From contig JAURXY010000034.1 of assembly GCA_030654225.1 (NCBI GenBank), positions 25,184 through 89,183 of the forward strand: a stretch of 64,000 bases of DNA, in the 5' to 3' direction. This document shows, piece by piece, positions 9,556-58,464 of this stretch. The DNA comes from a bacterium (GTDB taxonomy: Bacteria > Patescibacteriota > Minisyncoccia > Moranbacterales > UBA2206). The notes under the pieces are model-generated. The model was given only the letters and a program-made list of their open reading frames with translations, was not told where the DNA came from and did not search any database. The number at the start of each line of letters is the position of its first letter. The stretch's first letter is position 1. The position numbers were made by a program, and so were the translations under genes.

Positions 9556-10638
9556 TTAGGATAGAATTTCCTTTATTTCCTCTAAACTCTCCGCCATAAC
9601 TAATTTTCGGCGCAATTCTGAGGCTCCAGGGAAACCTTTGACATACCAACTCATATGCTTTCGAATTTCAAAAAGTCCTTGTTGACCCTTGTTTTTGTGG
9701 ATTAATTTTGCATGAAGAAGCATTATTTTCTTTACCCTGTTAAGTAAATTTTGCTCTGCAAAATTATTTTTCGTAATCGAAAAATACTTAACAGGGTGAA
9801 TTTTTTTAAAATCGTATTTTGCCCCCGTAGAGACGCCCCGACGGGGCGTCTCTACACAATTCAATAATTCTTTTATCTCCTCAAAAATCCACGGCTTACC
9901 CCAAGCGCCCCGGGCAATTCCAAGACCATCCAAAAGAGGATGGTCTTGCAAAATTTTCACGCCATCCTCAGCGGAATTTATCCCACCGTTCGCCAAAACG
10001 ATTTTTTCCGGAAACATTTTTTTGATTTTTTCAACAAGATTGAAATCTAGCGAACCAGAAAACCCACCTTCATATGTTCGACCATGAATCATAATGACCG
10101 AGTAGGGAAGATCAGCTGTGCTTTTGACAAAATCAAGGGCTGAAAATCCTAAAGCCGAGCTTTGAGAATTTTTTAAAAGCTCGGCTTTAGGATTTTCAAT
10201 ACCTGCTCGAATTTTTATAGACACCGGCAATTTGGTATTTTCACAAACAGCCGAAATAATTTCACGCGCCAATTTTTTTTGCATCATTAGCGCGCAACCC
10301 GAACCATGACCAAAAACTTTTTTGGCCGGACAACCAAAATTAATGTCAATTCCATCTGGCTTCACTATTTGCGAAATAATTTTAGTGGCCTTGGCAAAAT
10401 GCGCCGGGTCTTTCCCAAAAAGTTGCACCACGTATGGCCGTTCAGCTCTATTAAATTTTACTAATTCTAAAGTTTTTTGAGGTTTAAAAAATAAAGCGCT
10501 AACGCTTGCCATTTCCGAATATACCACATCCGCTCCATATCGCCGGCAAATTTGACGAAACGCACTGTCCGTTATGCCCGCCATCGGGGCTAGAGCCAGA
10601 ATTGGTTTTTTCAATTTTAACCAAAAATTTTTATTCAC
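9556..10638 (-). CDS. dus: tRNA-dihydrouridine synthase (probable GTG start) with an in-frame palindromic insertion
   Basis: 360 aa; 'LAPMAGITDSAFRQICRRYGADVVYSEM' plus FMN-binding TIM-barrel motifs. The 29-nt perfect palindrome at 9827-9855 encodes extra residues in 'ETPRRGVSTGA'. Confidence 0.9.
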   Translation of the reverse strand: MNKNFWLKLKKPILALAPMAGITDSAFRQICRRYGADVVYSEMASVSALFFKPQKTLELVKFNRAERPYVVQLFGKDPAHFAKATKIISQIVKPDGIDINFGCPAKKVFGHGSGCALMMQKKLAREIISAVCENTKLPVSIKIRAGIENPKAELLKNSQSSALGFSALDFVKSTADLPYSVIMIHGRTYEGGFSGSLDFNLVEKIKKMFPEKIVLANGGINSAEDGVKILQDHPLLDGLGIARGAWGKPWIFEEIKELLNCVETPRRGVSTGAKYDFKKIHPVKYFSITKNNFAEQNLLNRVKKIMLLHAKLIHKNKGQQGLFEIRKHMSWYVKGFPGASELRRKLVMAESLEEIKEILS

Positions 10639-18775: not shown

Positions 18776-18872
18776 TGTCATCTCCGCGTAGGCGGGGATC
18801 TAGTGTATAGATTAAGTTTATTGCGATAAAAATTATTTTTATGACTGGATTCCCGTTTTCACGGGAATGACA
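18776..18872. mobile_element. MITE-like element, family A, copy 2
   Basis: tgtcatctccgcgtaggcggggatc ... ggattcccgttttcacgggaatgaca. The two copies flank def. Confidence 0.75.
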
Positions 18873-18877
18873 ATGCT

Positions 18878-21504: not shown

Positions 21505-22236
21505 ATGAATATTTTAGGAGTAAAAGTTGATAATCTCACTAAAAAAGAAATTCTGGAAAAAATCAGAACTTTTTTGACTGAACCAAAATTTCATCAGATC
21601 GCCACTATTAATCCGGAATTTATCTTGGAAACACAGAAAAATTTAGAGTTTAAAAATATTTTGAACACTTGCGATTTGAATGTAGCTGATGGAGTTGGGA
21701 TAAAATTGGCTTTTTGGCGATTTGGAAAAAATTTGAAAACTAGACTTGCTGGCGCAGATTTGATGCTGGAAATTTTGAAAATTGCCCAGACACAAAAATT
21801 TTCAATTTTTTTAGCTGTAAATAAGAATGGTTTGAGTAATTTTGAAGAAACAAAAAAAGCTATATTGAAAATTTATCCTAAATTAGAAATTAATGGGGGA
21901 AATATAGACACAAAAACAGAAGCTAAGCTTCTGTTTGACAGAAGCTTAGCTTCTGTTTTTGGACAGATACTTTTTTGCAACTTCGGCGCCCCGCATCAAG
22001 AACTCTTCATAAATTCACAAAAATGTGATACTATAAGACTAGCCATGGGAGTTGGCGGAAGTTTCGATTTTCTTACCAAAAAAGTCCGTCGCGCTCCGCA
22101 ATTTATGCAAATTATTGGCTTAGAATGGCTCTGGCGAATATTTCAACCGCAAGAATGGAAATTCAAAAAAGAAAGACTTCGAAAAATTTTTCAAGCGGTA
22201 ATAATTTTTCCAATTAAAATAATAATCAACAAATAA
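21505..22236 (+). CDS. WecB/TagA/CpsF-family glycosyltransferase (GT26) with an in-frame palindromic insertion
   Basis: 'MNILGVKVDNLTKKEILEKI' N-terminus is typical of TagA-like enzymes. The palindrome pair at 21917-21957 encodes 'TEAKLLFDRSLASV'. Confidence 0.75.
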   Translation: MNILGVKVDNLTKKEILEKIRTFLTEPKFHQIATINPEFILETQKNLEFKNILNTCDLNVADGVGIKLAFWRFGKNLKTRLAGADLMLEILKIAQTQKFSIFLAVNKNGLSNFEETKKAILKIYPKLEINGGNIDTKTEAKLLFDRSLASVFGQILFCNFGAPHQELFINSQKCDTIRLAMGVGGSFDFLTKKVRRAPQFMQIIGLEWLWRIFQPQEWKFKKERLRKIFQAVIIFPIKIIINK

Positions 22237-22245
22237 AATTAAAAT

Positions 22246-22314
22246 TGTCATACTGAACTTGTTTCAGTATCTAAAAAATTGCAAAGCAGATCCCGAAATA
22301 AATTCGGGATGACA
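22246..22314. repeat. Hairpin repeat element, family C
   Basis: tgtcatactgaacttgtttcagtatc ... gatcccgaaataaattcgggatgacaa. Confidence 0.65.
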
Positions 22315-28004: not shown

Positions 28005-28013
28005 AAAATGTTT

Positions 28014-28092
28014 TGTCATTCCCGTGAAAACGGGAATCTAGTCTCAAATCACTAAGTTTCTACACTAGATTCCCGCCTACGCGGGAATGACA
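28014..28092. mobile_element. MITE-like element, family B (TIR tgtcattcccg / cgggaatgaca), copy 1
   Basis: tgtcattcccgtgaaaacgggaatctagtctcaaatcactaagtttctacactagattcccgcctacgcgggaatgaca; between iscS and iscR. Confidence 0.75.
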
Positions 28093-28501: not shown

Positions 28502-28582
28502 ACTAATTTAGTATGCTTTAATTATAATCTTTTTGAAATAATCTGTCAACAGTGTTATAATTAAAATGTAATTGTAATTTTT

Positions 28583-28662
28583 ATGTCATCCTCGCGAATG
28601 CGGGGATCCAGTCTCAAATCATTAATTTTCTACACTAGATTCCCGCATTCGCGGGAATGACA
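28583..28662. mobile_element. MITE-like element, family B, copy 2
   Basis: tgtcatcctcgcgaatgcggggatccagtctcaaatcattaattttctacactagattcccgcattcgcgggaatgaca. The two copies flank iscR. Confidence 0.75.
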
Positions 28663-29796: not shown

Positions 29797-29806
29797 TAAC
29801 CTCAGT

Positions 29807-29833
29807 TGTCATCCTGAACTTGTTTCAGGATCC
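29807..29833. repeat. Hairpin repeat element, family C
   Basis: tgtcatcctgaacttgtttcaggatcc, immediately upstream of the GIY-YIG ORF. Confidence 0.65.
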
Positions 29834-29843
29834 CTATTAATCT

Positions 29844-30152
29844 ATGAAACAATATTGTGTTTACATTATTACTAATAAACTAAATAAAGTTTTTTATATT
29901 GGATTTACTGGAAATTTACCAAAAAGAATTTACGAACATAAAAATAAATTAGTAAAAGGATTTTCTGAAAAATATAATTTAACAAAATTAGTTTATTTTG
30001 AGCAAACAACGGATGTTTATTCTGCTATCTCCAGAGAAAAACAACTAAAAAATTGGCACAGGGATTGGAAAATAAACCTGATAACTAAAAGTAATCCGGG
30101 TTGGATAGATTTGTATGACACATTATTAGATGCTGAAACAAGTTCAGCATGA
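29844..30152 (+). CDS. GIY-YIG nuclease-domain protein (stand-alone, about 100 aa)
   Basis: 'VYIITN...FYIGFTGNLPKRIYEHK' GIY-YIG motif. The ORF's 3' end overlaps the downstream hairpin element. Confidence 0.75.
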   Translation: MKQYCVYIITNKLNKVFYIGFTGNLPKRIYEHKNKLVKGFSEKYNLTKLVYFEQTTDVYSAISREKQLKNWHRDWKINLITKSNPGWIDLYDTLLDAETSSA

Positions 30153-30217
30153 CAGTCTTTTTTATCTTATCATCCTGAGTTTGTCTTTTTGTCATCCTGA
30201 ATTTATTTCAGGATCTC
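30129..30217. repeat. Hairpin repeat cluster, family C
   Basis: gatgctgaaacaagttcagcatgaca ... tcatcctgagtttgtc ... tgtcatcctgaatttatttcaggatc. Confidence 0.7.
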
Positions 30218-30727: not shown

Positions 30728-30800
30728 TGCTCTGGCAGGGATTTGAACCCCGGACTAAGACATTGACAGTGTCTTGTTCTGACCGCTGAACTACCAGAGC
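30728..30800 (-). tRNA. tRNA-Asp (anticodon GTC)
   Basis: Reverse complement folds as a 73-nt cloverleaf: acceptor GCTCTGG/CCAGAGC, D-arm GTTC/GAAC, anticodon stem AGACA-CTGTCAA-TGTCT, T-arm CGGGG-TTCAAAT-CCCTG, discriminator A. Confidence 0.85.
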
Positions 30801-36128: not shown

Positions 36129-36938
36129 TCAGTTATGTTTTGGCAACGGCTTGCCCCGATATTTCCAAAAATACTTAATCGCACTAGCAATATGAATTCT
36201 AGAAAGTTTATTAAAAAAAAGGAGTTTGAAAATATTTTTACCAGCCGAACTTCTTCTGTGGTAATGATACATTTTAGCGATTGGATAATAAATAACTTTA
36301 TATCCGTTTTCCCAAAAATTTCGACACCAATCAATATCTTCGAAATAATATGTGAACCGCTTATCAATAAGTCCGACCACATCCGCTATTGCACGCCTTG
36401 TCATCATAGCTGATCCCAAAATCCAATCTACCTCCTGTATTTTATTATTATCCACATCTTTCATCAAATAATACTCAAGGTATTTCTTAGCAAACCACAA
36501 TTTTCCTAAAGGAGTTCTGCGATAAAGAATAGTTAGAGGAGTCATAAATCTAAAGCAGGATGTCTGGATAGAATCATTGAAATTAAGAAGTTGTGGTCCA
36601 ACAACACCCACTTCTTGATTATTTTTCATATATTCCAAAAGTTTCTCAATAGAATTTTCCTTGATAATAATATCGTCATTCAGAATGAGAATAAAATCTC
36701 CTGTACTCTCCTTATATCCTCTCCGTACCTCACCTCCAAACCATAAATTTATTTCCGAACTTAAAAATTTTATTTCAGAATAATCCTCTCTCATCATAGT
36801 AGAAATTTCTTCAGTAGTTTCAGAATCTGAAACTACAATTTCATAATCTGATCCGCTATAATTTTTCTTAATCGAATCAATGCAAACTTTCAAGAGTTCC
36901 GGACTTTTATAGCTAGTAATGATGATGGATAATTCCAT
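36129..36938 (-). CDS. Glycosyltransferase family 2
   Basis: 269 aa; 'LSIIITSYK' N-terminus and a DxD-like 'LNDDIII' motif. Confidence 0.75.
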   Translation of the reverse strand: MELSIIITSYKSPELLKVCIDSIKKNYSGSDYEIVVSDSETTEEISTMMREDYSEIKFLSSEINLWFGGEVRRGYKESTGDFILILNDDIIIKENSIEKLLEYMKNNQEVGVVGPQLLNFNDSIQTSCFRFMTPLTILYRRTPLGKLWFAKKYLEYYLMKDVDNNKIQEVDWILGSAMMTRRAIADVVGLIDKRFTYYFEDIDWCRNFWENGYKVIYYPIAKMYHYHRRSSAGKNIFKLLFFNKLSRIHIASAIKYFWKYRGKPLPKHN

Positions 36939-38198: not shown

Positions 38199-39359
38199 TC
38201 AATGACTCATCTGCAAAAAAATTTCTAGCAATTTTTCCGCAGTTTTTTGCCAGGAAAATTTTTCAGCTTGCAACTTTCCATTTTTCGACAAACTATCTCG
38301 CACCATCTCATTGGTCATTATTTCCTTGATTTTTTGGGTCAACTCTCCGGGAATTTCTGGTTTGAAATATAGCGTTGCGTTATCTGCAATTTCTCTGTGT
38401 GGTGGAATATCGGAAACTATGGTTGGCACACCTAGCGACATCGCTTCGATAATTGGCATACCAAAACCTTCATAAAATGAAGGGAACACAAAAATATCCG
38501 CACCTTTGATTATCCCTGCCTTATCTTCTTCATCAATATACCCAGGAAAGAAAACGTCTTCAATTAAATTATTTTTTTTAGTTACTTCATCTATTAATTT
38601 GTCATAATTATACCCCTTACCTCCGGCGATAACTAATTTCAAAGAATTAAGTTTTAACTTTAAGTTGAGTTCGGTTTTTAACAGTGCCACTGCTTCGATA
38701 AGCGCTGGTATATTTTTTCTTGGTTGTAATGTGCCGATATATAGAATGTATCTTTCTGGAAGATTATATTTTATCTTGATTGCTTTTATTTTTTCCTCGG
38801 ATATATCTTGCGTCGAAAAATCCTCTGACACCGCATTATGAAACCAATCAACTTTTTTTGGATCAGTTTTATAATATTTAATTATTTCGTCTTGAGTGAA
38901 TTGGGACACCGCAATTATCTTGTCCGCACGCTTGAGACTTTTTGGAATCAAAGTTTTTAGAAATAACAAATCCCAAAATTTGATAAATTGCGGATAAAAA
39001 TTGAAAGAAATGTCATGAATAATTGTGACGATTTTTATTTTTTTCGGCACGAACCATGGTGTGATATATTGCGTGAGATAAACATCGACTGGTTTTTTTC
39101 GCAAATACATTGGAAGCGTCCAAAAATTCCAACTAAATTTGTTTTTCGTTGGAAGTGAAATTATTTCAAAATTTTTCTGATTATCTATTCCAAGACTTAC
39201 TCCAGTATTCTGTAATACTGTAGTATCAGTTATGTCGGTGAATAATTTATATTCATTCTCACTATCTATTTTAGCTAAATTTTTAGTCAAATTGAAAAAC
39301 ACCGCTTCGCTGCCAGTTTGTTTTTTGCCTATAAGTCGAATGTCAATACCTATTTTCAT
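38199..39359 (-). CDS. Glycosyltransferase family 4
   Basis: 'FPSFYEGFGMPIIEAMSLGVPTIVSD' EX7E motif. Start placed at the internal Met (MKIGIDIR) to avoid overlapping the upstream ORF. Confidence 0.75.
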   Translation of the reverse strand: MKIGIDIRLIGKKQTGSEAVFFNLTKNLAKIDSENEYKLFTDITDTTVLQNTGVSLGIDNQKNFEIISLPTKNKFSWNFWTLPMYLRKKPVDVYLTQYITPWFVPKKIKIVTIIHDISFNFYPQFIKFWDLLFLKTLIPKSLKRADKIIAVSQFTQDEIIKYYKTDPKKVDWFHNAVSEDFSTQDISEEKIKAIKIKYNLPERYILYIGTLQPRKNIPALIEAVALLKTELNLKLKLNSLKLVIAGGKGYNYDKLIDEVTKKNNLIEDVFFPGYIDEEDKAGIIKGADIFVFPSFYEGFGMPIIEAMSLGVPTIVSDIPPHREIADNATLYFKPEIPGELTQKIKEIMTNEMVRDSLSKNGKLQAEKFSWQKTAEKLLEIFLQMSH

Positions 39360-40957
39360 TTTTTTATTTGTGCTATTCCCAGCCAGAGCCAAAAAAATCC
39401 CAAAAATATTCCAGCATTAAAAAAATTGGGAACAATGATCGCAAACCAAGAAATTATTAAAAATAAACTAATAATTATTTGCGAATCATTTTGTGCTGCG
39501 TAATATTCTTTTATCGCTCTACCTAGTATATACGATAGCATAATCACAAAGGACGCAAAACCTAGAATTCCACTGCCAAGCCAAATTTCCAAAAATATAT
39601 TGGAAGAATTGAAGTTCATGCCTCGACCGTCTTCTCCTAAAATTTTCCCAATACTCCCCCAACCTATTCCTAAAATCGGGTGATTTTTTATCTCCTGCCA
39701 AGATCTTTGATAAATAAAGCTTCGAATTGAAATATTTGGATCTTTTCTAAAAATCTCCGTTACTAAATTTCCCTGATTTTTTTCTATTTCAATTTCTTCC
39801 AAGTTAATATGTCGACAACTATATTTTTCCAATTCAGAAATATTTTCAATTTCTTTTGGTAGGGAACGCAAATTTGCGTTCCCTACATTACAGGAAACGG
39901 TGATTTTCTGCATTCCTGATCCGGTTGACTGAACACGATTAAATAATTGGAAATTAGTTAGATGAAAAATATAAACCAGACCAACAGCAACAAAAAGCGC
40001 CGGGACTATAATCAGCTTTATTTTAATAGTTTCCCTCCATTGCCAATTTTTGGGATGGAATTTTAAATTTGTAAAAATAGTGAAAAGAAAAATAAATGTC
40101 ACGGCAAATGCACCGAGCCAAGCGCTTCTGCTTACAGTTAGGATAAGTAAAACATATGAAATAGTAAGTAATAAAAATAAACCGCCCAACAGAAGCTTAG
40201 CTTCGGGAGCTCCCGAAGCTAAGCTTCTGTCTGAGTCTTCGAAGTAATATATCAAAACATAAATTAAACTTATAACTAGCACTATAAAAATTCCCAACCA
40301 ATCCGCCTCCGAAAAAGTCGCATTTGGTCGTCCGGGCATCGTTTCAAAACTATTTAGCCCTCGCAAGAACCAAATATTTTGCCAAATTCCATAAAACACA
40401 ACGACCAAAGAAGAGCTAAGAAAAAATGGCACTACTTTTTTCAAGTCCTCGATATTTTGAATATAATTTCGCACTAAAAAATATAGCGCGGAAAATGTGG
40501 CCAGGATTATCGCCAATTTTAAACTTAAAATTTTATTCGACGCATTTATAATACTAAAAAGTCCGCCGATATTTATTATGACAATTAACCAATCATACCA
40601 TTCCAATTTAACTAATTTGAAATTCAGTTTTCCGGAAAGCAATCTGATTATTATGGCAGTAATTGTGAGTGCGCCGATAAATTGATATGGCCTGATTGCA
40701 ATTCCAAGCTCCAATGGCGCCAGATTGATGTTTTCTAGCGCAATCGTTCCAACAAAAAACAGAAACGCCCACCCAGGACGGTATAGCGCCAAAAACAAAG
40801 TCAGAATTGCAAAGAAAACAAAATCCCCTATTCGCAAAGGAATAATCCCTAAATTATTAAAAATAATCAAAAATAAAACTAAAGCCACATTCACCAAAAT
40901 CAACCAGCTCTTTGGTTTGTTGAGGTTATTAATTATTTTTTCAAAAAATAAATTCAT
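39356..40957 (-). CDS. O-antigen ligase/polymerase-like polytopic membrane protein (Wzy/WaaL family) with two in-frame palindromic insertions
   Basis: 533 aa with at least 10 TM helices and a large periplasmic loop. Palindromes at 39860-39887 and 40189-40238 are in-frame. Confidence 0.55.
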   Translation of the reverse strand: MNLFFEKIINNLNKPKSWLILVNVALVLFLIIFNNLGIIPLRIGDFVFFAILTLFLALYRPGWAFLFFVGTIALENINLAPLELGIAIRPYQFIGALTITAIIIRLLSGKLNFKLVKLEWYDWLIVIINIGGLFSIINASNKILSLKLAIILATFSALYFLVRNYIQNIEDLKKVVPFFLSSSLVVVFYGIWQNIWFLRGLNSFETMPGRPNATFSEADWLGIFIVLVISLIYVLIYYFEDSDRSLASGAPEAKLLLGGLFLLLTISYVLLILTVSRSAWLGAFAVTFIFLFTIFTNLKFHPKNWQWRETIKIKLIIVPALFVAVGLVYIFHLTNFQLFNRVQSTGSGMQKITVSCNVGNANLRSLPKEIENISELEKYSCRHINLEEIEIEKNQGNLVTEIFRKDPNISIRSFIYQRSWQEIKNHPILGIGWGSIGKILGEDGRGMNFNSSNIFLEIWLGSGILGFASFVIMLSYILGRAIKEYYAAQNDSQIIISLFLIISWFAIIVPNFFNAGIFLGFFWLWLGIAQIKK

Positions 40958-44636: not shown

Positions 44637-46595
44637 ATGTTAAATTTTATTTACAGTCAAATTTTATTTTATATATCTATTTTAGTAATTCTGTTTGTCC
44701 CAGGATATTTTTTGCTTTTGGCGGTTTTTGGTAAATATGAAAATCAGATAAGTAAATTAGAAAGATTTATTTTTTCTTTTGGATTAAGTTTAATCGTTGT
44801 TGATTTTATCGCTTTTGCTTATTCCAAACTAAACGTTCCGATTACTGCCCTCTCTTCAATTTTGGGGGTACTGTTTTTTGCCATAATTTGCCTTGCATTT
44901 AGACACTGGGTGTCTAAAAAGACACCCAGTGTCTCTGTAGGCATTCAAGAAGAAGATAAATTATTTTCTTTTTCCAAAAATCAATTTCTCCTCCTTTTGC
45001 TTCTTTTGTTTTTGACAATTTTTATTAAAACTGCCTATCTCAGTGGAACAGTTGCCCCAACTGCCACTGACATGGGTCATCACACCTATTGGGCTAAAGA
45101 AATGTCCACCACTCACAAACTTCCTGTTTATGAAGGAATGCCTGATTTTATCATTGGTGAACATATTGCTTTGTCAGAGATAAATATGATCAGTGGAAAA
45201 AGTTTCTTTTCAGCTTTCCCGGTTATTTTTTTGCTACTGATTAATCTTCTTAGTATCCTCACTGTTTTTATCTTGACTTTACGAATTTTCAAAAACAAGA
45301 ATGTTGCTATTCTTTCAATTCTTTTTTTGGGAGTTCTTTTTGCTGTTTCCTCACCTCAGGCTAAATTTGTTAGTGGTGGTGTAATAGGAAATATCTTGGG
45401 AAATCTTCTGATGCCTATGGCCTTTTATTTTTATTTCAGAGCTACAGAATTTCTAAATGTAGGGGTTCAATTTATTGAACCCACTAATAAACCGATTGGG
45501 TTTGATAAATCAAACCCCTACATTTTAAATGATAGTCAGAAATTTCTTTCCCTTGGAATTTTTTCCACTTTCGGACTTTTTTATACGCATCATCTCACTG
45601 CTTTTATATTTTTATTTATTTTTTCCTTACTTATTATTATTTTCCTAGCTCTAAATTACAAAGACCTGAAAAATATTTTTGGAAAAATATTTGATTTGGT
45701 TTTTTCCGTTCCTGTTATCACAACTTTTGCAGTCGGATTGATTTTTTTCTTTTTTATTTTCACTCCAAATTATATGCAGACTAGTGCGGTAGAAACCGCT
45801 GTCGGCACACCCTCAAAAGCCACTCGCGAAGGATTGAGTATGGACAACATAAAATCTTCCGTGGGCGAAGTTCGTCTGGCTCTTGGATTTTTAGGACTTC
45901 TGATTTTATCTTTGAATTATAAAAGAAAAAATTTCGGCTTCACTTTGATTTCTGCTTGGACAGTTATGCTTTTTATCATGTCCACTAAACCAGAATTAAT
46001 TTTCATCAACTTGCCTAGTTCTCGAATTGGAAATTATATGAGCTATCCCCTTGCCATCCTTTCTGCCTATGGATTATTTTCTATTTTCAATCCCAGTTTA
46101 GTTGATTCAAAAAAAATAATTCCCAAGAAATTTCTAGCTGGCTCATTTTTGATTATCCTAATTTTTGTTTTAACTAGCGGGATAAGCGACAGCGTTCAAG
46201 CTTTCAAAAAAGCCCCTGACTTCACTCCCGTTATTGAAACTTATGACGCTTCTAATTATTTAGTGAAAAATACTAACGAGGAAGATGTGATTCTAAAAGA
46301 TCATAATTATATCACTGCAGATTCTTGGATAAAATTGTTTTTTATGCAAGGTTATAGATACCCTCAGTCTCGTGGCTATTTCAAGCGTTATGAAGATCCC
46401 ACTAAACCTCGTGAAATGTGCACCCTCTATATGATTTCCAATCCGGCCGGTCAAGACGCCCAGGATTGTTTTTTTGAAACAAAAACTAATTATATTTTGG
46501 TTAATCCAAAATTTGATAGCTCCCAATTTGTAAAACTCAAAAATTTTAGCAAAGTTTATAACAATGGCGATGTAGCTGTTTATTATAAAAAATAA
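44637..46595 (+). CDS. Large polytopic membrane protein, possibly a third GT-C-type glycosyltransferase
   Basis: 652 aa; about 12 TM helices then a soluble C-terminal domain. Conserved-looking loop 'TATDMGHHTYWAKEM'. Confidence 0.45.
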   Translation: MLNFIYSQILFYISILVILFVPGYFLLLAVFGKYENQISKLERFIFSFGLSLIVVDFIAFAYSKLNVPITALSSILGVLFFAIICLAFRHWVSKKTPSVSVGIQEEDKLFSFSKNQFLLLLLLLFLTIFIKTAYLSGTVAPTATDMGHHTYWAKEMSTTHKLPVYEGMPDFIIGEHIALSEINMISGKSFFSAFPVIFLLLINLLSILTVFILTLRIFKNKNVAILSILFLGVLFAVSSPQAKFVSGGVIGNILGNLLMPMAFYFYFRATEFLNVGVQFIEPTNKPIGFDKSNPYILNDSQKFLSLGIFSTFGLFYTHHLTAFIFLFIFSLLIIIFLALNYKDLKNIFGKIFDLVFSVPVITTFAVGLIFFFFIFTPNYMQTSAVETAVGTPSKATREGLSMDNIKSSVGEVRLALGFLGLLILSLNYKRKNFGFTLISAWTVMLFIMSTKPELIFINLPSSRIGNYMSYPLAILSAYGLFSIFNPSLVDSKKIIPKKFLAGSFLIILIFVLTSGISDSVQAFKKAPDFTPVIETYDASNYLVKNTNEEDVILKDHNYITADSWIKLFFMQGYRYPQSRGYFKRYEDPTKPREMCTLYMISNPAGQDAQDCFFETKTNYILVNPKFDSSQFVKLKNFSKVYNNGDVAVYYKK

Positions 46596-49575: not shown

Positions 49576-50160
49576 ATGAAACTAATCACAATTTCTGGTC
49601 TTGATGGCTCAGGGAAATCAACTCAAATTGAAATGCTAAAAAAGCATTTAGAATCGCAAAGTAAGCGGGTTTTTTATTTTCATGCTGGGCAATTTAGTAT
49701 TAGTAAGATTTATAATATTTTAAGACCACACAAGATTATTACTGGCAAACATCATGAAAGCGTGGTCAAAGCTAATGTTTTTCAAATTTATCTTCGTCGT
49801 TTTGCATTACTGATAGATTTGGTGCGCTTTAAGTTATTACATAATAAATTACGTAATAAAAATTATGATTATATTTTGAGTGACCGGTATTTTTATGATA
49901 GTGTGGTTAATATTGAATTTTTATGTAGGGAACGCATATATGCGTTCCCTACGTGGATTGTAAATCCCGATTTGGCAATCTATCTTCAAACTGATCCGGA
50001 AATAATAATGCAAAGAGAAAGAAAGCCTGATCAAGGAATTGATTATCTCAAAAAGAAAAAAAATATATATGACGCAAAAATTCTCGATTGGAATATGAAA
50101 CTAATTAATGGCAATCGAGGCCAAGAAGAAATTTTTAAAGAAATAAAATCATTTTTATGA
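49576..50160 (+). CDS. tmk: Thymidylate kinase-like P-loop kinase with an in-frame palindromic insertion
   Basis: 194 aa; 'ISGLDGSGKSTQ' P-loop and 'LSDRYFYDS' DRY motif. The palindrome at 49925-49952 encodes 'RERIYAFP'. Confidence 0.6.
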   Translation: MKLITISGLDGSGKSTQIEMLKKHLESQSKRVFYFHAGQFSISKIYNILRPHKIITGKHHESVVKANVFQIYLRRFALLIDLVRFKLLHNKLRNKNYDYILSDRYFYDSVVNIEFLCRERIYAFPTWIVNPDLAIYLQTDPEIIMQRERKPDQGIDYLKKKKNIYDAKILDWNMKLINGNRGQEEIFKEIKSFL

Positions 50161-51638
50161 AAAACAATTTAGTAAAATCAGTTTTCTGGGTAACGGTTTC
50201 GGAAATTTTATTTAATCTTTCCGGTTATGTAATCCATTCTGTTGCTGGAAGAGTTTTGGGTCCGGGTGATTATGGTCGCTATGGAATTGTAATAACACTC
50301 ACTACGATGATTATTATTCTTGTTGGCAATGGCGTGCCAACTGCTATGGCAAAATATTTGAGTGAAGTTTTTGAATCCAATCCGATAATGATTGGTGTAA
50401 TTAAGAAAAAAGCTATCATTCTCCAATCCATTATTATTGGAACGCTAACCGTAATATTTTTTCTTTTAGCGCCAGTTTTGGCATGGGCGTTAAAAGATCC
50501 AACACTTACCAATCTTTTTCGTCTTTCCACTTTGATTATTCCTGCTTTTGCTATGTCCTCTTTCTATTTTTCCTATTACACCGGTCTTCACAAGTTCAAC
50601 ATTCAATCTCTGCTAAAAACTCTGCGCTCGCTTTTTAGAGTGACTATTATTGTTGCTCTCGCCTATTTCTACAAAGTGCCCGGAGCAATCTTGGGTTATG
50701 TCATCGCTCCGTTTCTAACTTTTATTATCGGTTGGTGTATTGATAAATTTAGAGTTAAAGCAGAAATTGAAAATCAAATACAACTTAATCCCAATAAAGC
50801 AGAAATAGTTTTTGAATATAAAAAACTTATGCGTTATGCTTGGCAAATCGTTATTTTTTTTCTCGCCTACGAGCTTTTTATCAGCATTGATTTATATTTA
50901 GTAAAAGGAATTTTGAGAAATGATTATTTAACCGGAATATATAATGGCGCCCTTACAGTTGGACGCATCCCCTATTATGTTTTTTATGCCCTCACCGTTG
51001 TTCTTCTTCCGGCAATTTCCAAAAGCACTTCCGAGAACAACCATGCAAAAACCAGCCAGATCATTGGAAATTCCTTGCGCTTAATGTTGATTATTTTGGC
51101 CCCCGCTATTATCTTGATGGCCTATTTTTCTCAACCAATAATAAAGATTTTTTATAGCGCTAGATATTTGGCGGCTGCTGAACCGATGGCGGTTTTGGTT
51201 TATGGGGTGGGATTTTTGACAATTTTCTATGTGATGAGTTTTGTTATGAATGGAGCGGGAAAAACTAAGATCCCGATGATTATTTCTATTATTGGCTTGA
51301 CTTTGAATTCTGTTTTGAACTATTTTTTCATTCAAAAATTTGGACTTATGGGTTCCGCTTGGGCCACAACAATTTCTTCATTTCTAGCCATGCTTCTAAT
51401 GGTCTATTTCCTCTATAGAGAGTTTGGGGTTGTAATTAGTATAAAGAGCCTTCTAAGAGTTATTTTCTCCTCAGGAGGGCTTTATTTGACTTCCACACTC
51501 TTCCCTAATGAAAATTATTACTTTATTATCTGGTCTATAATTCTGCTATCTTTCTATTTTATTTTTCTTTATATACTAGGAGAAATAAAAAAAGATGATA
51601 TTTCATATTTCAGAAATATCATCCTTAAGAAAAAATAA
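50157..51638 (+). CDS. Polysaccharide flippase (Wzx-like, MOP superfamily)
   Basis: 493 aa; about 14 TM helices; N-terminal 'VFWVTVSEILFNLSGYVIHSVAGRVLGPGDYGRYG'. Confidence 0.7.
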   Translation: MKNNLVKSVFWVTVSEILFNLSGYVIHSVAGRVLGPGDYGRYGIVITLTTMIIILVGNGVPTAMAKYLSEVFESNPIMIGVIKKKAIILQSIIIGTLTVIFFLLAPVLAWALKDPTLTNLFRLSTLIIPAFAMSSFYFSYYTGLHKFNIQSLLKTLRSLFRVTIIVALAYFYKVPGAILGYVIAPFLTFIIGWCIDKFRVKAEIENQIQLNPNKAEIVFEYKKLMRYAWQIVIFFLAYELFISIDLYLVKGILRNDYLTGIYNGALTVGRIPYYVFYALTVVLLPAISKSTSENNHAKTSQIIGNSLRLMLIILAPAIILMAYFSQPIIKIFYSARYLAAAEPMAVLVYGVGFLTIFYVMSFVMNGAGKTKIPMIISIIGLTLNSVLNYFFIQKFGLMGSAWATTISSFLAMLLMVYFLYREFGVVISIKSLLRVIFSSGGLYLTSTLFPNENYYFIIWSIILLSFYFIFLYILGEIKKDDISYFRNIILKKK

Positions 51639-51642
51639 TTTT

Positions 51643-53262
51643 CTATTTAACCTTCAAAGCAAAAACTGAAAATTGGCGAAAGATTGAACATTTTTCAATG
51701 TCATATTTTTTTGCTATCTCTTGGGAAAGCTCGCATTTAGCCGAAGCATTTTTAAGATAGAATAGCTTGTCTCCTGAGTTTAATTTAATTTCTTTTCTAA
51801 GTTGAATTATTTCAATTTGTTCTTTCCCTGCTAAAAACTGAAGTGAGCGAAGAGATTTGAAAAGATAACCAGCTTGCGCATCAATGTAGGCTGTTTTATT
51901 TTCTGAATTATTTTTGATAAAATCAACGATATATTTCCCCTCTCCTAAAGTCAGATAATCAAAATCTCCATTGATTTCTCTTCCGCCATATTGCAAATCT
52001 TTATAGGTATAGAATATTTTTTGCAAATTGAAAGATGAAAAAATGGCAATAATAGCTATCGCAACCCACAAGCCTTTTTTGAATTTTTTCTCAAAAAAAT
52101 TCAACCAAAATCCCAAGATCAGCAATGGAATAAATAACAACGGCAAAAAGAAACGAACCGCCAATTCAGTGGCCCAAGTTATATAGAAAAGAAAAGACAA
52201 TATTATATAACTAGATATAAGCCCCAGGAAAAGTTTTTTATTCCTATCGCTTTCTTTTATAGCTTTTTTAAATAAGAGAAAATATCCACCCAAAGAAAAT
52301 ACTAGCGACAAAATAATCAAAACAACAAAACTTGCTTTTTCTCCTATGGTCATCCTTGTTCCATCTAACTTTTTGAAAATTTTCCAATCATTTTCATACC
52401 CGCATTCATTTTCATTGCCTAATGATGTGAGGATGTGATTATTGGTTTTGATATGACAAGAAAAATTCAAAAGCAAATTATTCGCCCAACTTCCATTTCG
52501 TTCATTCTTGCTGGTAATTCCCAAAATAAACTGATATGAATTAGCCCCACCGCTTCTAACTTCACTTACAATCTGGGGAATATTAACAAAAATAGTGGAC
52601 GCCACAATGATTACTATTGCCGTTGCTGAAATTATTTTTTTCTTGAAAAAGATAATCGCCGTGAAAAAAGAAAGCACTGGAAGGATTATCAAAAGCGAAG
52701 TATGCAATTGAATGCAAATTCCCAGAGATATTCCTGTCAAAATTGCCCAGGCAATTTTTCTTTTTTGTAAAATTGCCAAATTATAAAGTGCGTAGATAAA
52801 AAGCATCACAAAAAACGGGGTGGAATTTGGATTCCAAGCAAAACGAGAAAATTTAATCGCAAAATATGAAATTGAATACAGCCAAGCCAAAGCCAATGCG
52901 ATGGGAATTTTGAAATAAATTTTTGCTAAAAGAAAAAACATCCCGATTGACAAAATAGAAAAAAATAAATCCGGATAAGCTACTTTTTCCGGCTCTGCCC
53001 CAAATATTTTCGCTGAAACTAACTGAAAATAATAGAATGCTGGGCCAAGCAAAAATTCTGTTCCGCCTGCTCCAGGACCAAGATCTGGCAATCTGTTATT
53101 TTCGCTTAAATTTTCTATCAATTCCACATCGCGCGATTGATCCATATTGAATCTGAGCCAATCAGAAAAATGATAGGTACGCAAAAATATTCCCACTAAA
53201 ATAATCAGCATCAATAATATTGCGACTTGATGTTTTTTTATTTTTCCAAAAAAATTATTCAT
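51643..53262 (-). CDS. ArnT/PMT-like membrane (GT-C fold) glycosyltransferase, subfamily A, paralog 1
   Basis: 539 aa; N-terminal 'FLRTYHFSDWLRFNMDQSRDV' loop motif and 'GPAFYYFQ'. Polytopic; 'FAWNPNS'. Confidence 0.65.
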   Translation of the reverse strand: MNNFFGKIKKHQVAILLMLIILVGIFLRTYHFSDWLRFNMDQSRDVELIENLSENNRLPDLGPGAGGTEFLLGPAFYYFQLVSAKIFGAEPEKVAYPDLFFSILSIGMFFLLAKIYFKIPIALALAWLYSISYFAIKFSRFAWNPNSTPFFVMLFIYALYNLAILQKRKIAWAILTGISLGICIQLHTSLLIILPVLSFFTAIIFFKKKIISATAIVIIVASTIFVNIPQIVSEVRSGGANSYQFILGITSKNERNGSWANNLLLNFSCHIKTNNHILTSLGNENECGYENDWKIFKKLDGTRMTIGEKASFVVLIILSLVFSLGGYFLLFKKAIKESDRNKKLFLGLISSYIILSFLFYITWATELAVRFFLPLLFIPLLILGFWLNFFEKKFKKGLWVAIAIIAIFSSFNLQKIFYTYKDLQYGGREINGDFDYLTLGEGKYIVDFIKNNSENKTAYIDAQAGYLFKSLRSLQFLAGKEQIEIIQLRKEIKLNSGDKLFYLKNASAKCELSQEIAKKYDIEKCSIFRQFSVFALKVK

Positions 53263-55048
53263 TCATATTTATATCACTGGTTAATTCCTCATCTTCTTCA
53301 ATAGTTTGTTTTTTTATCCCAAAAACATCCTTCCAAAAAAGTCGATCAGTTTTGGAATATTTTTTGTTAAACCTAAAATTCTTGGAAATGTTTCTCTCTG
53401 GAAAATTTATCTCATAAACTGAAATTTGTCCACAATCTTGAGAAGACAATATTTCAACTGGCACCCCATATTTTTTTTCTAAGGCTTTTTTTGGCTCCGT
53501 GTCAGAAGGAATAGTTGCAAAATATTGGGCGTTAGGATTATCATTCAAACTCAAAGTTTCATAAACAAAATTAGGATCATTTTTTTGCGCCAAAATATAT
53601 TTTATCGGATTTATATGCTCCGGCTTAGTATAAAAATAACTCGTATCGCCAGTTTTTCTTTTTGTATATATAAAATCGGCCACTTTTTGCAGTTCACTCA
53701 AGGTCACACCATCTTTTGTTTTCAAAATCAAAGTGCGGTTTATTTCCACATCCTTGATTTGAGACTGCTTCATTTCCGAAAACCACGCCAGCGTTCCATA
53801 CACATTCAAGCTAAATATAATGATTGCGACTGCCGAAATAGGATACGCTGATTTTTTCGGCCATCTTTCTTGAAAAAAATTAAATACTACTCCGCTCAAC
53901 AAAAATGGCACAGCAAAAACCAAGATAAAAAATCTTGGACGAAGTTGAAAAGAAACTGGGAAAGTAAAAATGAAAAACACACCTATCCACAAAAACAACA
54001 GTGCCAAAAAATTTCTTCTGCTAGAATCTTTTTCTCTCCTTAGGGCTCGTGCCGACAAAATTATTCCGGAAGAAATAAGGATAATTGTGAGAATTGACGG
54101 CAAATCATTATTTGTGCCATCAAACGGCTCACCTTCTCCGCAAAAAGAAGTAGTGATGAGACAATAATATTTGGTATTCTCAGAAAAATTTTTGGAAATT
54201 TTTTCTGCAAATGATTTGTCTTTTGCTTTGGAACTCAAAGCTTGAATGAAATTTCCGGCATTTTCCCCTTTTCTCATCACATCACTTATAATCACAGGCG
54301 AATAAATCAAAGCAAAAACAGAAATAAAAACCAAAGAATAAATGGCTATTTTTTGCAAAATATTTTTTTGGAATATATCCTTGATTTTTTGCAATTTCCA
54401 AAACTGACTATGAAACAAAATCAAACATCCGGAGATAGCGGTGAGCACAAAGAAACCAAAAAAATGCAGTTGTGATCCGATAGAAAGTCCGAGTACCCAA
54501 ATAATGAGCCAACCTATTTTTCTTTTGAGCTTTTGTTCACTCAGAAACTTCAGGAGTCCAAAAAAAGTCAATAAGGCAAAAAATTGCAACGGATTAGGAT
54601 TCCAAGCAAAACGAGAATATTGAATCACAATGAAAGAAAAAGCATACATCGCCATAGTAAGCAATGAAATATTTTTGGAAAAATAAATTCTCGCCAGAAA
54701 ATACAGCAGGACTATCGCCAAGATTGAAAAAAATAAATCCGGATAGGCAAAAACTTGCGGGGCAGTAGAGTTGGAAATGGCACCCGCGATATATTGAAAA
54801 TAATAATAGGCGGGACCGAGTCTCAAAAATCCACTATCCACTTCGGTTGCACCGGCTCTTGGCCCCAAAAGCGGAAGCATCATTGGTCCTTCATTTATCG
54901 CATGACTAACGAGTTGCGCATCACGCGATTGATCCATTTTGAAATATAGCCAATCGGAAAAATTGTAAAAACGGAAAGCAAAAGCACCGATAACTATCGC
55001 TAGCATAATAATCGTAACGGCATATTTTTTGGTTAGTAAGTTTTTCAT
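53255..55048 (-). CDS. ArnT/PMT-like membrane (GT-C fold) glycosyltransferase, subfamily A, paralog 2
   Basis: 597 aa; 'FYNFSDWLYFKMDQSRDAQL', 'GPAYYYFQ' and 'FAWNPNP'. Confidence 0.65.
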   Translation of the reverse strand: MKNLLTKKYAVTIIMLAIVIGAFAFRFYNFSDWLYFKMDQSRDAQLVSHAINEGPMMLPLLGPRAGATEVDSGFLRLGPAYYYFQYIAGAISNSTAPQVFAYPDLFFSILAIVLLYFLARIYFSKNISLLTMAMYAFSFIVIQYSRFAWNPNPLQFFALLTFFGLLKFLSEQKLKRKIGWLIIWVLGLSIGSQLHFFGFFVLTAISGCLILFHSQFWKLQKIKDIFQKNILQKIAIYSLVFISVFALIYSPVIISDVMRKGENAGNFIQALSSKAKDKSFAEKISKNFSENTKYYCLITTSFCGEGEPFDGTNNDLPSILTIILISSGIILSARALRREKDSSRRNFLALLFLWIGVFFIFTFPVSFQLRPRFFILVFAVPFLLSGVVFNFFQERWPKKSAYPISAVAIIIFSLNVYGTLAWFSEMKQSQIKDVEINRTLILKTKDGVTLSELQKVADFIYTKRKTGDTSYFYTKPEHINPIKYILAQKNDPNFVYETLSLNDNPNAQYFATIPSDTEPKKALEKKYGVPVEILSSQDCGQISVYEINFPERNISKNFRFNKKYSKTDRLFWKDVFGIKKQTIEEDEELTSDINMNE

Positions 55049-55095
55049 AATTTGCTATTTTAGTTTAAGCCAAAAATTATAATTTGGCAAAAAAA

Positions 55096-56721
55096 TTATT
55101 TGGGGTCATTTTTAATTTTCAAAATTGTAACATCATAAATCCGATGAAATTTTTCGACTTCACCATATTTTTTATATGACATTCCGACATAGAAGTTTTC
55201 CGATGATTCATTCACTGCAACAAATATCGGTAAATTTTTATCTCTCTCTATTCCTTCATTCAGCATAATAATTTCAATTTTTGCATCGGATAAAAAATAT
55301 TTTATTCTACCAACAAAACGACCCAGATAAACACTCTGTCCATCCAATTGGATTCTCTTATATGAGCCAGCTTCAGAAACTATGTATTCAGCAATTTCCT
55401 TGGCTTGATTCATGGTTCCGTCAATCATATTACTGGGAATATTAGTAGCATAAGTGCGAAAAGTTAATAAACAAAAAAATAAATTATACCCGATTAAAAT
55501 AGACATCGTCATCCAAGCCAAAAATTTAGTCGCCACCATATTTTGACTTAACAAAAATTCAAGCCATAGACCTAACAATATAAATGGAATAAAAATTAAT
55601 AAAATAAAATATCTCAAACTAACTTCAGCTCCAAATGGCACAAAAACACTCAATAGCGATAAGCTAAACAACACTAAGATAATATACTTACCATTTTTTT
55701 CTTTATCTTTCTTTATTTTTTTATATATAAAAAAATAACTCACACCCGAAAATATCACGACCGCAATAATCTTAGCTACATACAAAAACCAATCCACAAA
55801 ACCATCGTTTCTTCTTTCGAGTCGTTTTAGATATTTATCTGCAAGCGGAAAATCACAACTCTCTTGATTTGCGTATGGCGCTAGAATTTTCGCATTTGAT
55901 TGAACCTGACAAGAAGCAATGAAGAGTGCATTTTTCCAAAGTGAATTCTGATCATCAGATTTATATACGAGAGCATTTTTAAAATCCAAATAATTACCCC
56001 TTCCGGTTTTTATCTCACTTACAATCTGAGTATTATTTAAAATTAAAACGATCAAGGCAATTAACACCATACCTGAAAATTTAATCCGTTTATTTTTGAA
56101 CAAATATATTGCCAATATCAAGGATGCGAATGGCATACCGAACAAAAGCAATGTATGAAGTTGCATACTTATGCCAAGAGAAATTCCAATTAAAATAATC
56201 CAGGGCATTTTTTTCCTCTCCAGACTATTCCATAATTTAAGCACGGAATAAACAAAGAGCATATCAAAAAACTGAGCGGAGTTAGGATTCCAAGCAAATC
56301 TTGAATATTGCACAGTGAAAGATGCTATTGCATATAGTGCAGTCAATATCAATGAAATATTTTTTTCAAAATATTGTCGTGCTAAAAGATACAACAATGG
56401 GATAGCCAGAATACCAAAAAACAAATCTGGATAAGCCATCGTGTTAGGCGACACTCCAAAAACTCTTGCACTTAAATATTGAAAATAATAAAAAGCCGGA
56501 CCAAGTTTGAATAATGTACCACCAGCTACAGGACCGAGTAGCGGAATTTTATTTTCTTCAATCATACTTCGTACTACGGAAGCGTCTCTGGCTTGATCAG
56601 AATTAAATTTTAGCCAATCGGAAAAATGATAGGTGCGAAGAAAAATACCAACGATTATAATAATAACTAATGCCCAAAAATAAATAGATATTTTTCTAAT
56701 TTTTTTTATCAAATCATCCAT
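55096..56721 (-). CDS. ArnT/PMT-like membrane (GT-C fold) glycosyltransferase, subfamily A, paralog 3
   Basis: 541 aa; 'YHFSDWLKFNSDQARDAS', 'GPAFYYFQ' and 'FAWNPNS'. Confidence 0.65.
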   Translation of the reverse strand: MDDLIKKIRKISIYFWALVIIIIVGIFLRTYHFSDWLKFNSDQARDASVVRSMIEENKIPLLGPVAGGTLFKLGPAFYYFQYLSARVFGVSPNTMAYPDLFFGILAIPLLYLLARQYFEKNISLILTALYAIASFTVQYSRFAWNPNSAQFFDMLFVYSVLKLWNSLERKKMPWIILIGISLGISMQLHTLLLFGMPFASLILAIYLFKNKRIKFSGMVLIALIVLILNNTQIVSEIKTGRGNYLDFKNALVYKSDDQNSLWKNALFIASCQVQSNAKILAPYANQESCDFPLADKYLKRLERRNDGFVDWFLYVAKIIAVVIFSGVSYFFIYKKIKKDKEKNGKYIILVLFSLSLLSVFVPFGAEVSLRYFILLIFIPFILLGLWLEFLLSQNMVATKFLAWMTMSILIGYNLFFCLLTFRTYATNIPSNMIDGTMNQAKEIAEYIVSEAGSYKRIQLDGQSVYLGRFVGRIKYFLSDAKIEIIMLNEGIERDKNLPIFVAVNESSENFYVGMSYKKYGEVEKFHRIYDVTILKIKNDPK

Positions 56722-56723
56722 AT

Positions 56724-58382: not shown

Positions 58383-58464
58383 AAATATACTATCTTTACA
58401 ATAAGCCTATTTTTAATTATATTATATACAGATAGATTGTCAAAGTTTAATCTCAATAAAAATT

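Follow-up and report, generated by a model that had tools for sequence, protein, structure and literature searches.

Symmetric 28-bp GTAG...CTAC Palindromes in Frame in Two Moranbacterales Genes Are Probably REP-Type Elements Partnered With a Divergent RAYT Clade

Palindromes and Host Genes in the Window

The 64,000-nt stretch of Moranbacterales DNA analyzed here (Patescibacteriota; GenBank assembly GCA_030654225.1, contig JAURXY010000034.1, positions 25,184–89,183; hereafter the window) contains two 28-bp palindromes of the form GTAG...CTAC, one within a gene for an O-antigen-ligase-like membrane protein (hereafter Wzy) and one within a gene of the thymidylate kinase family (tmk; Table 1). 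Both probably belong to the class of repetitive extragenic palindromes (REPs), the known partners of REP-associated tyrosine transposases (RAYTs). Each is perfect, with arms of 14 nt, and the two differ from each other only in the central 4 nt. An earlier note on this DNA had described them in the same way and had placed both in frame within intact open reading frames (ORFs), which is confirmed here with Pfam assignments to Wzy_C and thymidylate kinase; its position for the tmk copy is exact, while that for the Wzy copy (39860–39887) was one nucleotide too high. The nearest relatives are found in Candidatus Moranbacteria and Parcubacteria, i.e., in the candidate phyla radiation (CPR; Patescibacteria).

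Table 1. Palindromes of the GTAG...CTAC type in the window and the genes that harbor the two 28-bp copies.
Feature	Position	Strand	Description
Perfect palindrome, copy 1 (28 bp)	39859..39886		GTAGGGAACGCAAATTTGCGTTCCCTAC; center AAATTT; read in phase 0 on the minus strand; peptide VGNANLRSL
Perfect palindrome, copy 2 (28 bp)	49925..49952		GTAGGGAACGCATATATGCGTTCCCTAC; center ATATAT; read in phase 1 on the plus strand; peptide (C)RERIYAFP(T)
Host gene of copy 1: O-antigen-ligase-like membrane protein (Wzy_C), 533 aa, intact	39356..40957	-	Pfam PF04932, E=3e-16
Host gene of copy 2: thymidylate-kinase-family protein, 194 aa, intact	49576..50160	+	Pfam PF02223, E=3e-12
Related member: perfect palindrome (29 nt)	9827..9855		GTAGAGACGCCCCGaCGGGGCGTCTCTAC; GTAGAGACG-type; in frame as VETPRRGVST in a dihydrouridine-synthase-like ORF (9556-10638, minus)
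Possible weak relative: perfect palindrome (23 nt)	36814..36836		GTAGTTTCAGAaTCTGAAACTAC; in frame in a glycosyltransferase-like ORF (36129-36938, minus)

The GC content of the 28-mers is 0.50, as opposed to 0.35 for the window, and both fold with an energy of -13.1 kcal/mol as single-stranded DNA (z = -8 to -10) and of about -20 kcal/mol as RNA. GTAG forms the 5' end on both strands and is base-paired to the 3' CTAC, hence the free hairpin exposes no unpaired tag. The codon phase differs between the two copies: phases GTA-GGG... and xGT-AGG... are free of stop codons on either strand, and the remaining phase contains TAG. A search of the window for a third copy with up to three mismatches returned nothing beyond these two, which amounts to 2 copies per 64 kb. 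No such palindrome appeared in 100 dinucleotide-preserving shuffles of the window, and none is expected by chance. An assembly or sequencing artefact, or mere coincidence, is next to inconceivable as their origin; all data come from metagenome assemblies and nothing further speaks in its favor, but besides the empty shuffles, the element recurs at an identical codon in orthologs of other samples, which were assembled independently, and is also present in long-read complete chromosomes.

Host Loops and Their Orthologs

In the Tmk protein, the palindrome is translated in the context L-CRERIYAFPT-W and starts 14 residues past the aspartate of the DRY motif (D103). An alignment of 30 orthologs places its residues in the single hypervariable stretch of the protein, between the end of the NIEYL helix and the PDxAIYL strand. 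The AlphaFold (AF2) model predicts residues C117–T126 in coil with a predicted local distance difference test (pLDDT) score of 67–75, between helix 106–117 and strand 133–138. The earlier note had seen an insert behind the DRY motif; the ortholog alignment upholds the location just past this motif, in a hypervariable loop, but the term insert turns out to be too simple, since at 14 aa the loop in the window protein is not longer than that of orthologs without the element (12–15 aa) and 28 nt do not make up whole codons. Some Tmk orthologs display other palindrome-type peptides in the same loop. The ortholog with 88% amino acid identity (L121) keeps 27 of the 28 nucleotides, and the one with 66% identity (L122) contains a decayed copy, GTAGGGAACGCATAcATaCGTTCCaaaa. 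The near-identical and the decayed 28-mer indicate that the tmk copy is old and vertically inherited.

The Wzy copy (CN-VGNANLRSL-PK) lies past the conserved QKITxSC motif, at a site which is likewise variable across the family and for which 80 further Wzy loci from metagenomes were compared. Three orthologs (L203–L205) contain GTAGGGAACGAAAATTTTCGTTCCttgC, where the outer pairs are lost and the inner 20 nt remain perfect via the compensatory exchange C11A/G18T. A further ortholog (L124) carries a decayed copy with three mismatches, and two others (L123, L125) resemble derivatives with a 12-nt deletion. Judging by such deletion derivatives in close relatives, comparison of the sequences suggests that some apparently empty loops are relics. 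The identity of the 28-mers compared with the nucleotide identity of their host genes was 27/28 vs. 88%, 23/28 vs. 72%, and 24–25/28 vs. 73–78%; these small numbers are suggestive only of a better conservation of the 28-mers than of the genes around them.

In other CPR lineages, the Wzy loop harbors different GTAG palindromes, such as GTAGAGACGAGGCAgTGCCTCGTCTCTAC in L132 and GTAGAGACGCATTGCAATGCGTCTCTAC, read in the other phase, in L141 and L142. A second Wzy site around residue 140 contains four different perfect 28-mers, all in phase 0. Similarly, six different interiors were found in the Tmk loop among 120 homologs, all in phase 1; one of them was verified on the DNA level (cGTAGAGGGCAAAAATTTTTGCCCTCTACg in L210) and agrees with the window copy in its right-hand junction and phase. 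Furthermore, 28/29-mers of the GTAGAGACG-type occur in both loops, Wzy and Tmk, in other lineages of the CPR. Peptides compatible with a palindrome were present in 7/120 Tmk homologs (shuffled control: 0) and in 14/120 Wzy homologs (shuffled control: 2). The intragenic copies lie in tolerant loops, in the two stop-free phases; at fixed codon positions, some persist while others have decayed or been replaced.

The stability of the RNA hairpins, the apparently better conservation of the 28-mers and the compensatory exchange which maintains the inner 20-nt stem in L203–L205 could reflect hairpins kept by the host for a function, speculatively as translational pause, mRNA stabilizer or cleavage sites in both genes, pausing and cleavage having been raised in the earlier note. 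This alternative is unlikely. Stem decay or deletion is tolerated in L122, L124 and L123/L125, and unrelated palindromes occupy the same loops in other lineages. About 90% of the members, among the matches listed below, lie outside long ORFs and in unrelated contexts; pausing or cleavage is not needed to explain the data, and a host function does not predict the link to RAYTs.

Distribution Across Phyla

The pattern GTAGGGAACGC-N2-10-GCGTTCCCTAC was searched in one genome per species, corresponding to 596 Gb, where by arithmetic about 0.6 matches are expected by chance. At least 120 loci were found. They are distributed over Poribacteria (with many per chromosome), Thermodesulfobacteriota, Aminicenantes, Elusimicrobiota, Planctomycetota, Clostridia, Gammaproteobacteria, Dadabacteria, Spirochaetes, Patescibacteria, Gracilibacteria and others. 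At least 14 loci were sampled on one Poribacteria chromosome. The earlier note had raised the possibility that only the two window copies exist and that both are conserved in orthologs. The first part proved wrong; as to the second, the 28-mers are retained in the closest orthologs and replaced, by different palindromes or by other sequence, across the wider families.

Among the matches listed, the center is usually palindromic (AGATCT in 64, ATATAT in 17 and AAATTT in 6), with one type per genome and different types across genomes (AGATCT in Poribacteria, ATATAT in three genomes and AAATTT in Aminicenantes). Within the same set, complementarity ends at the edge of the 28-mer in 89/123 copies, 111/124 copies lie outside long ORFs, and flanking direct repeats, sought as target-site duplications, follow the distribution expected by chance (0 nt in 96, 1 nt in 15, 2 nt in 9, 3 nt in 3 and 4 nt in 1). 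The flanks bear no relation to one another, and the search for a target motif yielded a weak preference for T/C at positions -1 to -3 and nothing else. The 28/29-bp symmetric unit is discrete and dispersed, with a center specific to the genome. A scan of 2.9 million viral contigs for the pattern gave no match, leaving a phage vector unsupported.

A few copies are located at the tip of longer hairpins (L032, L074, L116). Together with centers that vary but remain palindromic and host loops that are not lengthened by 28 nt, they would agree with a local and independent origin by template switching or quasipalindrome correction during replication, with neither a mobile element nor a dedicated enzyme. 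Template switching could well help keep the arms perfect, but as the origin of the palindromes it is very unlikely: identical arms of 11–14 nt in at least 120 loci of many phyla, with fewer than one expected, stand against it, and the constant length of 28/29 nt, the GTAG/CTAC ends and the tight tie to one RAYT clade would go unexplained.

The GTAG type is also enriched among hairpins in general. In the window, 4/32 perfect hairpins are of the form GTAG...CTAC, all of them intragenic, and in 1.24 Mb of CPR DNA 11/221 perfect hairpins (stem ≥10 bp) begin with GTAG, where 1 in 256 would be expected in either case. Nine of these 11 are exactly 28 nt long, and all 11 are situated within ORFs (≥100 aa), where they are read only in phase 0 or 1. 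Furthermore, a Moranbacteria metagenome-assembled genome (MAG; PCRW01) contains both window types in frame, one in UvrC (VGNAYMRSL; L014 3412–3439) and one in UvrB (CRERKFAFPT; L104 322–349). These copies fit the reported bias of intragenic REPs to repair genes (PMC3733652). The same UvrC also contains VETQNFASI and other palindrome-type segments.

BLAST searches with joined flanks against all loci revealed filled orthologous sites, one with a different palindrome, and no pair of an empty and a filled site. In the case of the different palindrome, a Poribacteria site carries a GTAG 28-mer in L071 (7809–7836) and an unrelated longer, imperfect palindrome, CCCTCCTCTCAGCTCCCCGCCTGCGGAGAGGAAGGGGGAG, in L096 (around 330–400). 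The sequences of this pair point to a site-specific turnover of different palindromic elements. Many Poribacteria copies (e.g., L020, L024, L042, L047, L106, L120) additionally abut a second conserved motif on one side, (A)GGAGTTACGCACTTCA or its complement TGAAGTGCGTAACTCCT, and the 28-mer and this motif may constitute a composite repeat.

Association With a Divergent RAYT Clade

In one of the loci (L048), the palindrome is found in frame inside a 190-aa gene with the HUH motif MPNHVH, the tyrosine motif YIxxNP and a Pfam match to Y1_Tnp (PF01797, E=1e-8). A second copy is located about 130 nt upstream of the start of this gene, and a variant lies 22 nt from the second copy. Homologs of the protein occur mostly in Patescibacteria and bear the Joint Genome Institute (JGI) name “REP element-mobilizing transposase RayT.” A hidden Markov model (HMM) of the clade, combined with the DNA, revealed internal copies in further RAYTs (L085, L068, L084, L059, L134, L206 and L208). 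Outside the genome of the window, the palindrome is associated with RAYT genes, residing both inside and next to them in L048, L208 and L209 and inside them in the remaining loci.

The internal 28-mer of the RAYT P0252 (L206/L207) is identical to the tmk copy (28/28), and that of P0243 (L208), GTAGGGAACGGGCATGCCCGTTCCCTAC, is accompanied by a compensated variant about 100 nt upstream of the start. A Parcubacteria MAG (L209) encodes two RAYT paralogs 1.6 kb apart (7861–8418 and 10001–10537), each with a different perfect 28-mer inside, and its intergenic 29-mer at 5716–5744 has the arms of the 28-mer within the first paralog. In a CPR locus (L134), the RAYT gene is directly upstream of a Wzy ortholog and itself encodes QERIYAFPT by a degraded ATATAT copy. 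In all six genomes where both were sampled (6/6), the internal variant equals the dispersed one. The element is enriched in and beside one RAYT clade, with matching variants. In L206, the RAYT with the palindrome identical to that of tmk is located immediately upstream of a thyA-folA-tmk cluster (497–3133), a proximity which is probably coincidental.

The clade has an invariant or nearly invariant MPNHxHG and YIxxNP, as expected for the HUH fold and catalytic tyrosine of a Y1 enzyme. Foldseek matches the AF2 model of the RAYT to TnpA_REP (4ER8; root-mean-square deviation 3.4 Å), ISDra2 and IS608, and 4ER8 is the sole match in a PDB sequence search. The best and essentially only NCBIfam family is NF047646, “REP-associated tyrosine transposase,” with scores of 61–71 bits that remain below the cut-off of 80.

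An alignment of the clade reveals a VGNxxxRSL segment at a fixed place past the HUH strand, whose variants back-translate to palindromes. The predicted centers are GCAGATCTGC for the variant ADL, GAAAATTTTC for ENF, GGGCATGCCC for GHA, AAAAATTTTT for KNF and GCATATATGC for AYM, and the peptide VGDADLRPL corresponds to GTAGGGGACGCAGATCTGCGTCCCCTAC. Coupled residue changes, such as N..S to D..P, obey the pairing rule of the DNA. A peptide compatible with a perfect GTAG...CTAC palindrome is found in 80/120 homologs of the L048 RAYT, a fraction from a word-seeded search whose query contained the palindrome peptide and from a back-translation scan that had no shuffled control. An unbiased set of 150 diverse RAYT representatives was therefore compiled by exhaustive phmmer searches from a palindrome-free member of the clade (P0317). 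Here, 55/150 are compatible, 53 of them in the loop past the HUH motif, compared with 0/150 among shuffles. With 26–32 nt allowed, the palindromes are 28 (44), 29 (15) or 27 nt (1) long, and they are read in phase 0 (45) or phase 1 (15). The AlphaFold model predicts the segment to be disordered (pLDDT <50 at residues 98–108) between the HUH strand and the next helix, where E. coli TnpA_REP has about 7 residues. Several RAYTs (P0258, P0275, P0340, P0351, P0358) contain tandem partial repeats of the palindrome peptide, e.g., VGNGHARSLRARSLRARSLRARS and VGVNDYSPKNINANDYSPKNVGANDYSPKNI, which suggests slippage or repeated insertion at this loop.

The conservation of VG above 90% at one position of the clade alignment and the recurrence of the peptides in several protein families raise the question of whether VGNxxxRSL and RERxxAFP are functional motifs selected at the amino acid level. 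Such selection is highly improbable: the same DNA read in two phases yields unrelated peptides, residue changes follow DNA pairing and not chemistry, the models show the segments as disorder (RAYT) or as coil of low confidence (Tmk), and most copies, among the matches listed, are non-coding.

It is also unlikely, though less so, that the palindrome serves a conserved dimeric DNA-binding protein, possibly the RAYT itself as a domesticated, non-mobilizing nuclease or regulator, as its operator or binding site, and that no transposition is involved. Dimer sites typically show perfect dyad symmetry, RAYTs are considered domesticated genes present in a single copy (PMC5581495), and a copy lies upstream of the start of the RAYT gene in L048 and in L208, as autoregulation would have it. 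However, the element is scattered through coding as well as non-coding DNA and shows no preferred position relative to promoters, the sampled loci per genome vary between a few and at least 14, and the turnover of different palindromes at orthologous sites implies a spreading process.

Proposed Origin and Mechanism

Taken together, the two window sequences are, with good confidence, copies of a discrete 28-bp symmetric element of the REP type, belonging to a 28/29-nt GTAG...CTAC class that is partnered with a divergent RAYT clade of Y1 HUH nucleases, enzymes with single-stranded DNA hairpins as substrates, and were caught in tolerant protein loops. By size (20–40 bp) and stem-loop formation, both window copies resemble REPs; they are intragenic and in frame, whereas the family as a whole is mostly extragenic. 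At the family level, the element behaves as a REP and passes most of the tests for one.

Mobilization by the RAYT is suggested by analogy with characterized enzymes. In this scenario, the RAYT would recognize the hairpin through the 5' GTAG as guide and cut at the CT opening the 3' CTAC. Each strand of the 28-mer would then be a complete substrate, consisting of GTAG, stem-loop and CT-AC, and the enzyme would copy the hairpin, or swap its interior, from site to site on single-stranded DNA. In the Moranbacteria lineage, whose genes are densely packed, the surviving copies would be those that landed in tolerant surface loops with the frame intact. The tmk and Wzy copies would have been gained in an ancestor, inherited vertically, and would be decaying in some relatives. 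Other GTAG palindromes of equal length at the same codons are best accounted for by replacement of the interior in situ or by repeated hits at a hotspot. An exchange of equal-length interiors between GTAG and CTAC would preserve the frame and could account for turnover at the same site and in the same phase as well as for uniformity within genomes. The peptides VGNANLRSL and RERIYAFP would be by-products and not functional motifs.

A more tentative extension, which we regard as possible but doubtful, is that the palindrome inside the RAYT gene co-varies with the enzyme and the dispersed copies as a heritable master copy or address label, and that the RAYT swaps interiors among resident sites, so that CPR loops are continuously rewritten. 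Such interior exchange from a master copy would explain the fixed length, the frame-preserving turnover in Tmk and Wzy, the uniformity within genomes and the near-identical palindromes across phyla.

Several observations weigh against an assignment to RAYT-mobilized REPs. GTAG is paired with CTAC here, whereas it forms an unpaired tag in the classical REP. Two window copies, plus one or two related palindromes, are far from “high copy.” A search of the 64-kb window by motif regular expression and by an HMM built from 27 RAYTs found no RAYT, and an active partner in the source organism is hypothetical. The clade is divergent and scores below the NCBIfam cut-off for RAYTs, and REP binding and cleavage by its members would follow from analogy. 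The sole orthologous contrast is that between different palindromes at the same site, as opposed to an empty and a filled one. As 28 nt is not a multiple of three, target duplications are lacking and host loops are no longer than those of element-free orthologs, a simple cut-or-copy-and-paste process does not by itself explain the in-frame copies; the entry of a 28-nt unit into a gene in frame and without target duplication, and the unlengthened loops, are likewise unaccounted for by the mechanism proposed above. Finally, the occurrence of both phases within RAYT genes may mean that the internal copy is a recurrent insertion, due to a cis-acting enzyme and one permissive loop, and not an ancestral, co-evolving feature.

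Full-text literature searches with the DNA string, the peptides and RAYT-internal palindromes returned no description of the element, an absence which is not proof of novelty, and a search for palindromic insertions in CPR yielded nothing relevant. What appears to be new is the symmetric class of fixed length (28/29 nt), the near identity of its arms in many phyla, the presence of a cognate copy within the RAYT ORF and the frame-preserving turnover in CPR housekeeping genes. Peptides such as VGNADLRSL, VGNAYMRSL, RERIYAFPT and VETQNFASL, a recurrent oddity of CPR and metagenomic proteomes, would find their explanation as translated selfish DNA, as opposed to motifs, and translated palindromes of this kind can mislead homology searches, alignments and structure prediction. 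If each RAYT of the clade does hold its cognate palindrome, the specificity of a RAYT for its REP could be read from one gene in thousands of uncultured genomes, and recognition and mobilization of REPs by RAYTs would become testable at scale with dozens of natural compensatory variants. The turnover of equal-length palindromes at the same site and in the same frame also hints at an undescribed cassette-exchange activity of Y1 nucleases.

Other Palindromes and Repeats in the Window

Besides the two 28-mers, the window contains the related 29-nt member and the 23-nt palindrome listed in Table 1. The latter is AT-rich and shorter than the 28/29-nt class, and its membership is doubtful. The dihydrouridine-synthase-like ORF that harbors the 29-nt member includes a second in-frame palindrome at 10141–10198 (58 nt, with 28-nt arms, 93%) encoding ENPKAELLKNSQSSALGFSA.

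A separate palindrome family with the core ACAGAAGCTTAGCTTCTGT is represented at 40189–40230 and 21911–21961. The former is a perfect 42-nt palindrome in a hypervariable loop of the Wzy-like protein with the peptide RSLASGAPEAKLL, which bears out the statement of the earlier note that this gene carries palindromes of two different families; the two are unrelated, and orthologs display other palindrome-type peptides at this loop, e.g., SRHSERSEAESKNL. The copy at 21911–21961 has 24-nt arms and lies inside a 265-aa ORF. Members of a further family are composed of TGTCAT, a G+C-rich hairpin and ATCT, e.g., TGTCATCCTGAATTTATTTCAGGATCT and TGTCATTCCCGTGAAAACGGGAATCTAGT, and are located at 13214–13293, 18218–18873, 22236–22314, 28006–28092, 28576–28662, 29797–29833 and 30128–30216, frequently as inverted pairs; two sets are spaced by about 570 nt.

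A perfect inverted repeat with 15-nt arms, AGACACTGGGTGTCT aaaa AGACACCCAGTGTCT, is found at 44901–44934, each arm being nearly palindromic itself. It lies in frame in a 652-aa ORF (44637–46595, plus strand), whose counterparts in L203 and L204 contain DUF1616. The region around 51600–59000 (minus strand) consists of four tandem paralogous genes of about 1.6–1.8 kb, with the repeat families D2–D4 and D11 at a spacing of 1610–1792 nt, and a pair of 226-nt repeats occurs at 60368 and 62299. The tandem paralogs have the appearance of genes for large membrane proteins. An Rfam scan of the window at the gathering threshold left the palindromes unmatched and returned a tRNA (30728–30800) as its sole match.

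Comparison With Known Systems

REPs tagged with GTAG, their association with RAYTs and in-frame intragenic copies are established, the latter being a minority with an excess in repair (uvr) genes (PMC3733652). Such REPs and their RAYT/TnpA_REP partners have been described as REPtrons (Nunvar 2010, PMC2817692; Di Nocera 2013, PMC3733652; Corneloup 2021, PMC8266576). GTAG serves RAYTs as a guide, and cleavage takes place at CT beside the stem-loop; the REPs of group 3 have perfect stems (PMC8266576). Like GTAG REPs, the element described here is a short (20–40 bp), G+C-rich palindrome that starts with GTAG and is dispersed and, at the family level, mostly extragenic. It is uniform within a genome and different between genomes, is found beside a Y1 HUH gene with one variant per RAYT paralog, and has CT immediately 3' of the stem, where characterized RAYTs cut. 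Occasional in-frame intragenic copies are shared as well; uvr genes are a notable site, represented here by UvrB and UvrC in a related Moranbacteria genome.

Conversely, the 28-mer is fully symmetric, so that GTAG pairs with CTAC and the two strands are interchangeable, it has a fixed length of 28/29 nt, and its arms are common to many phyla instead of being confined within a genus. In contrast to GTAG REPs, a cognate copy resides inside the RAYT ORF and not only beside it; an earlier RAYT analysis was limited to flanking extragenic 16-mers (Bertels 2017). The partner clade differs from known RAYTs in its divergence and in an extra loop absent from E. coli TnpA_REP.

REPINs (REP doublets forming hairpins) are proposed to be non-autonomous elements mobilized by a single-copy RAYT (Bertels & Rainey 2011, PMC3116915). 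They share the genome-specific populations, but a REPIN comprises two inverted REPs and a spacer, whereas here one 28-mer makes up the entire unit, each half forming an arm of the same hairpin. Among the matches listed, no regular doublets of the REPIN or bacterial interspersed mosaic element (BIME) kind were found; copies are solitary and complementarity mostly stops at the 28-mer, arguing against a REPIN doublet. Miniature inverted-repeat transposable elements (MITEs) were dismissed in view of flanking duplications at chance level. Repeats of a CRISPR array were likewise rejected, as the two copies are 10 kb apart inside genes and no array is present in the window or in the loci.

Small dispersed repeats (SDRs) of cyanobacteria, said to have been described by Elhai and colleagues in 2008, are reportedly apparently mobile repeats of 21–27 nt which reside in hairpins and differ between orthologous sites of related strains. 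The turnover at the Tmk, Wzy and Poribacteria sites resembles them, a likeness that serves as a lead only.

Rickettsia palindromic elements (RPEs), a discovery attributed to Ogata and colleagues in 2000, are reportedly selfish palindromic DNA lying in frame in essential genes of a small, reduced genome. The element of the window shares this setting, adding a surface peptide without inactivating the protein. Membership among the RPEs was nevertheless rejected: in-frame insertion agrees, but RPE-1 measures 100–150 bp, occurs in Rickettsia only and is not known to have a partner enzyme, whereas the present element is 28 bp long, occurs in many phyla and is linked to RAYTs. RPE-4 and RPE-6 have been equated with CGTC REPs (PMC3733652). 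The Rickettsia precedent of selfish palindromes tolerated in essential genes would thus extend to the reduced genomes of CPR bacteria.

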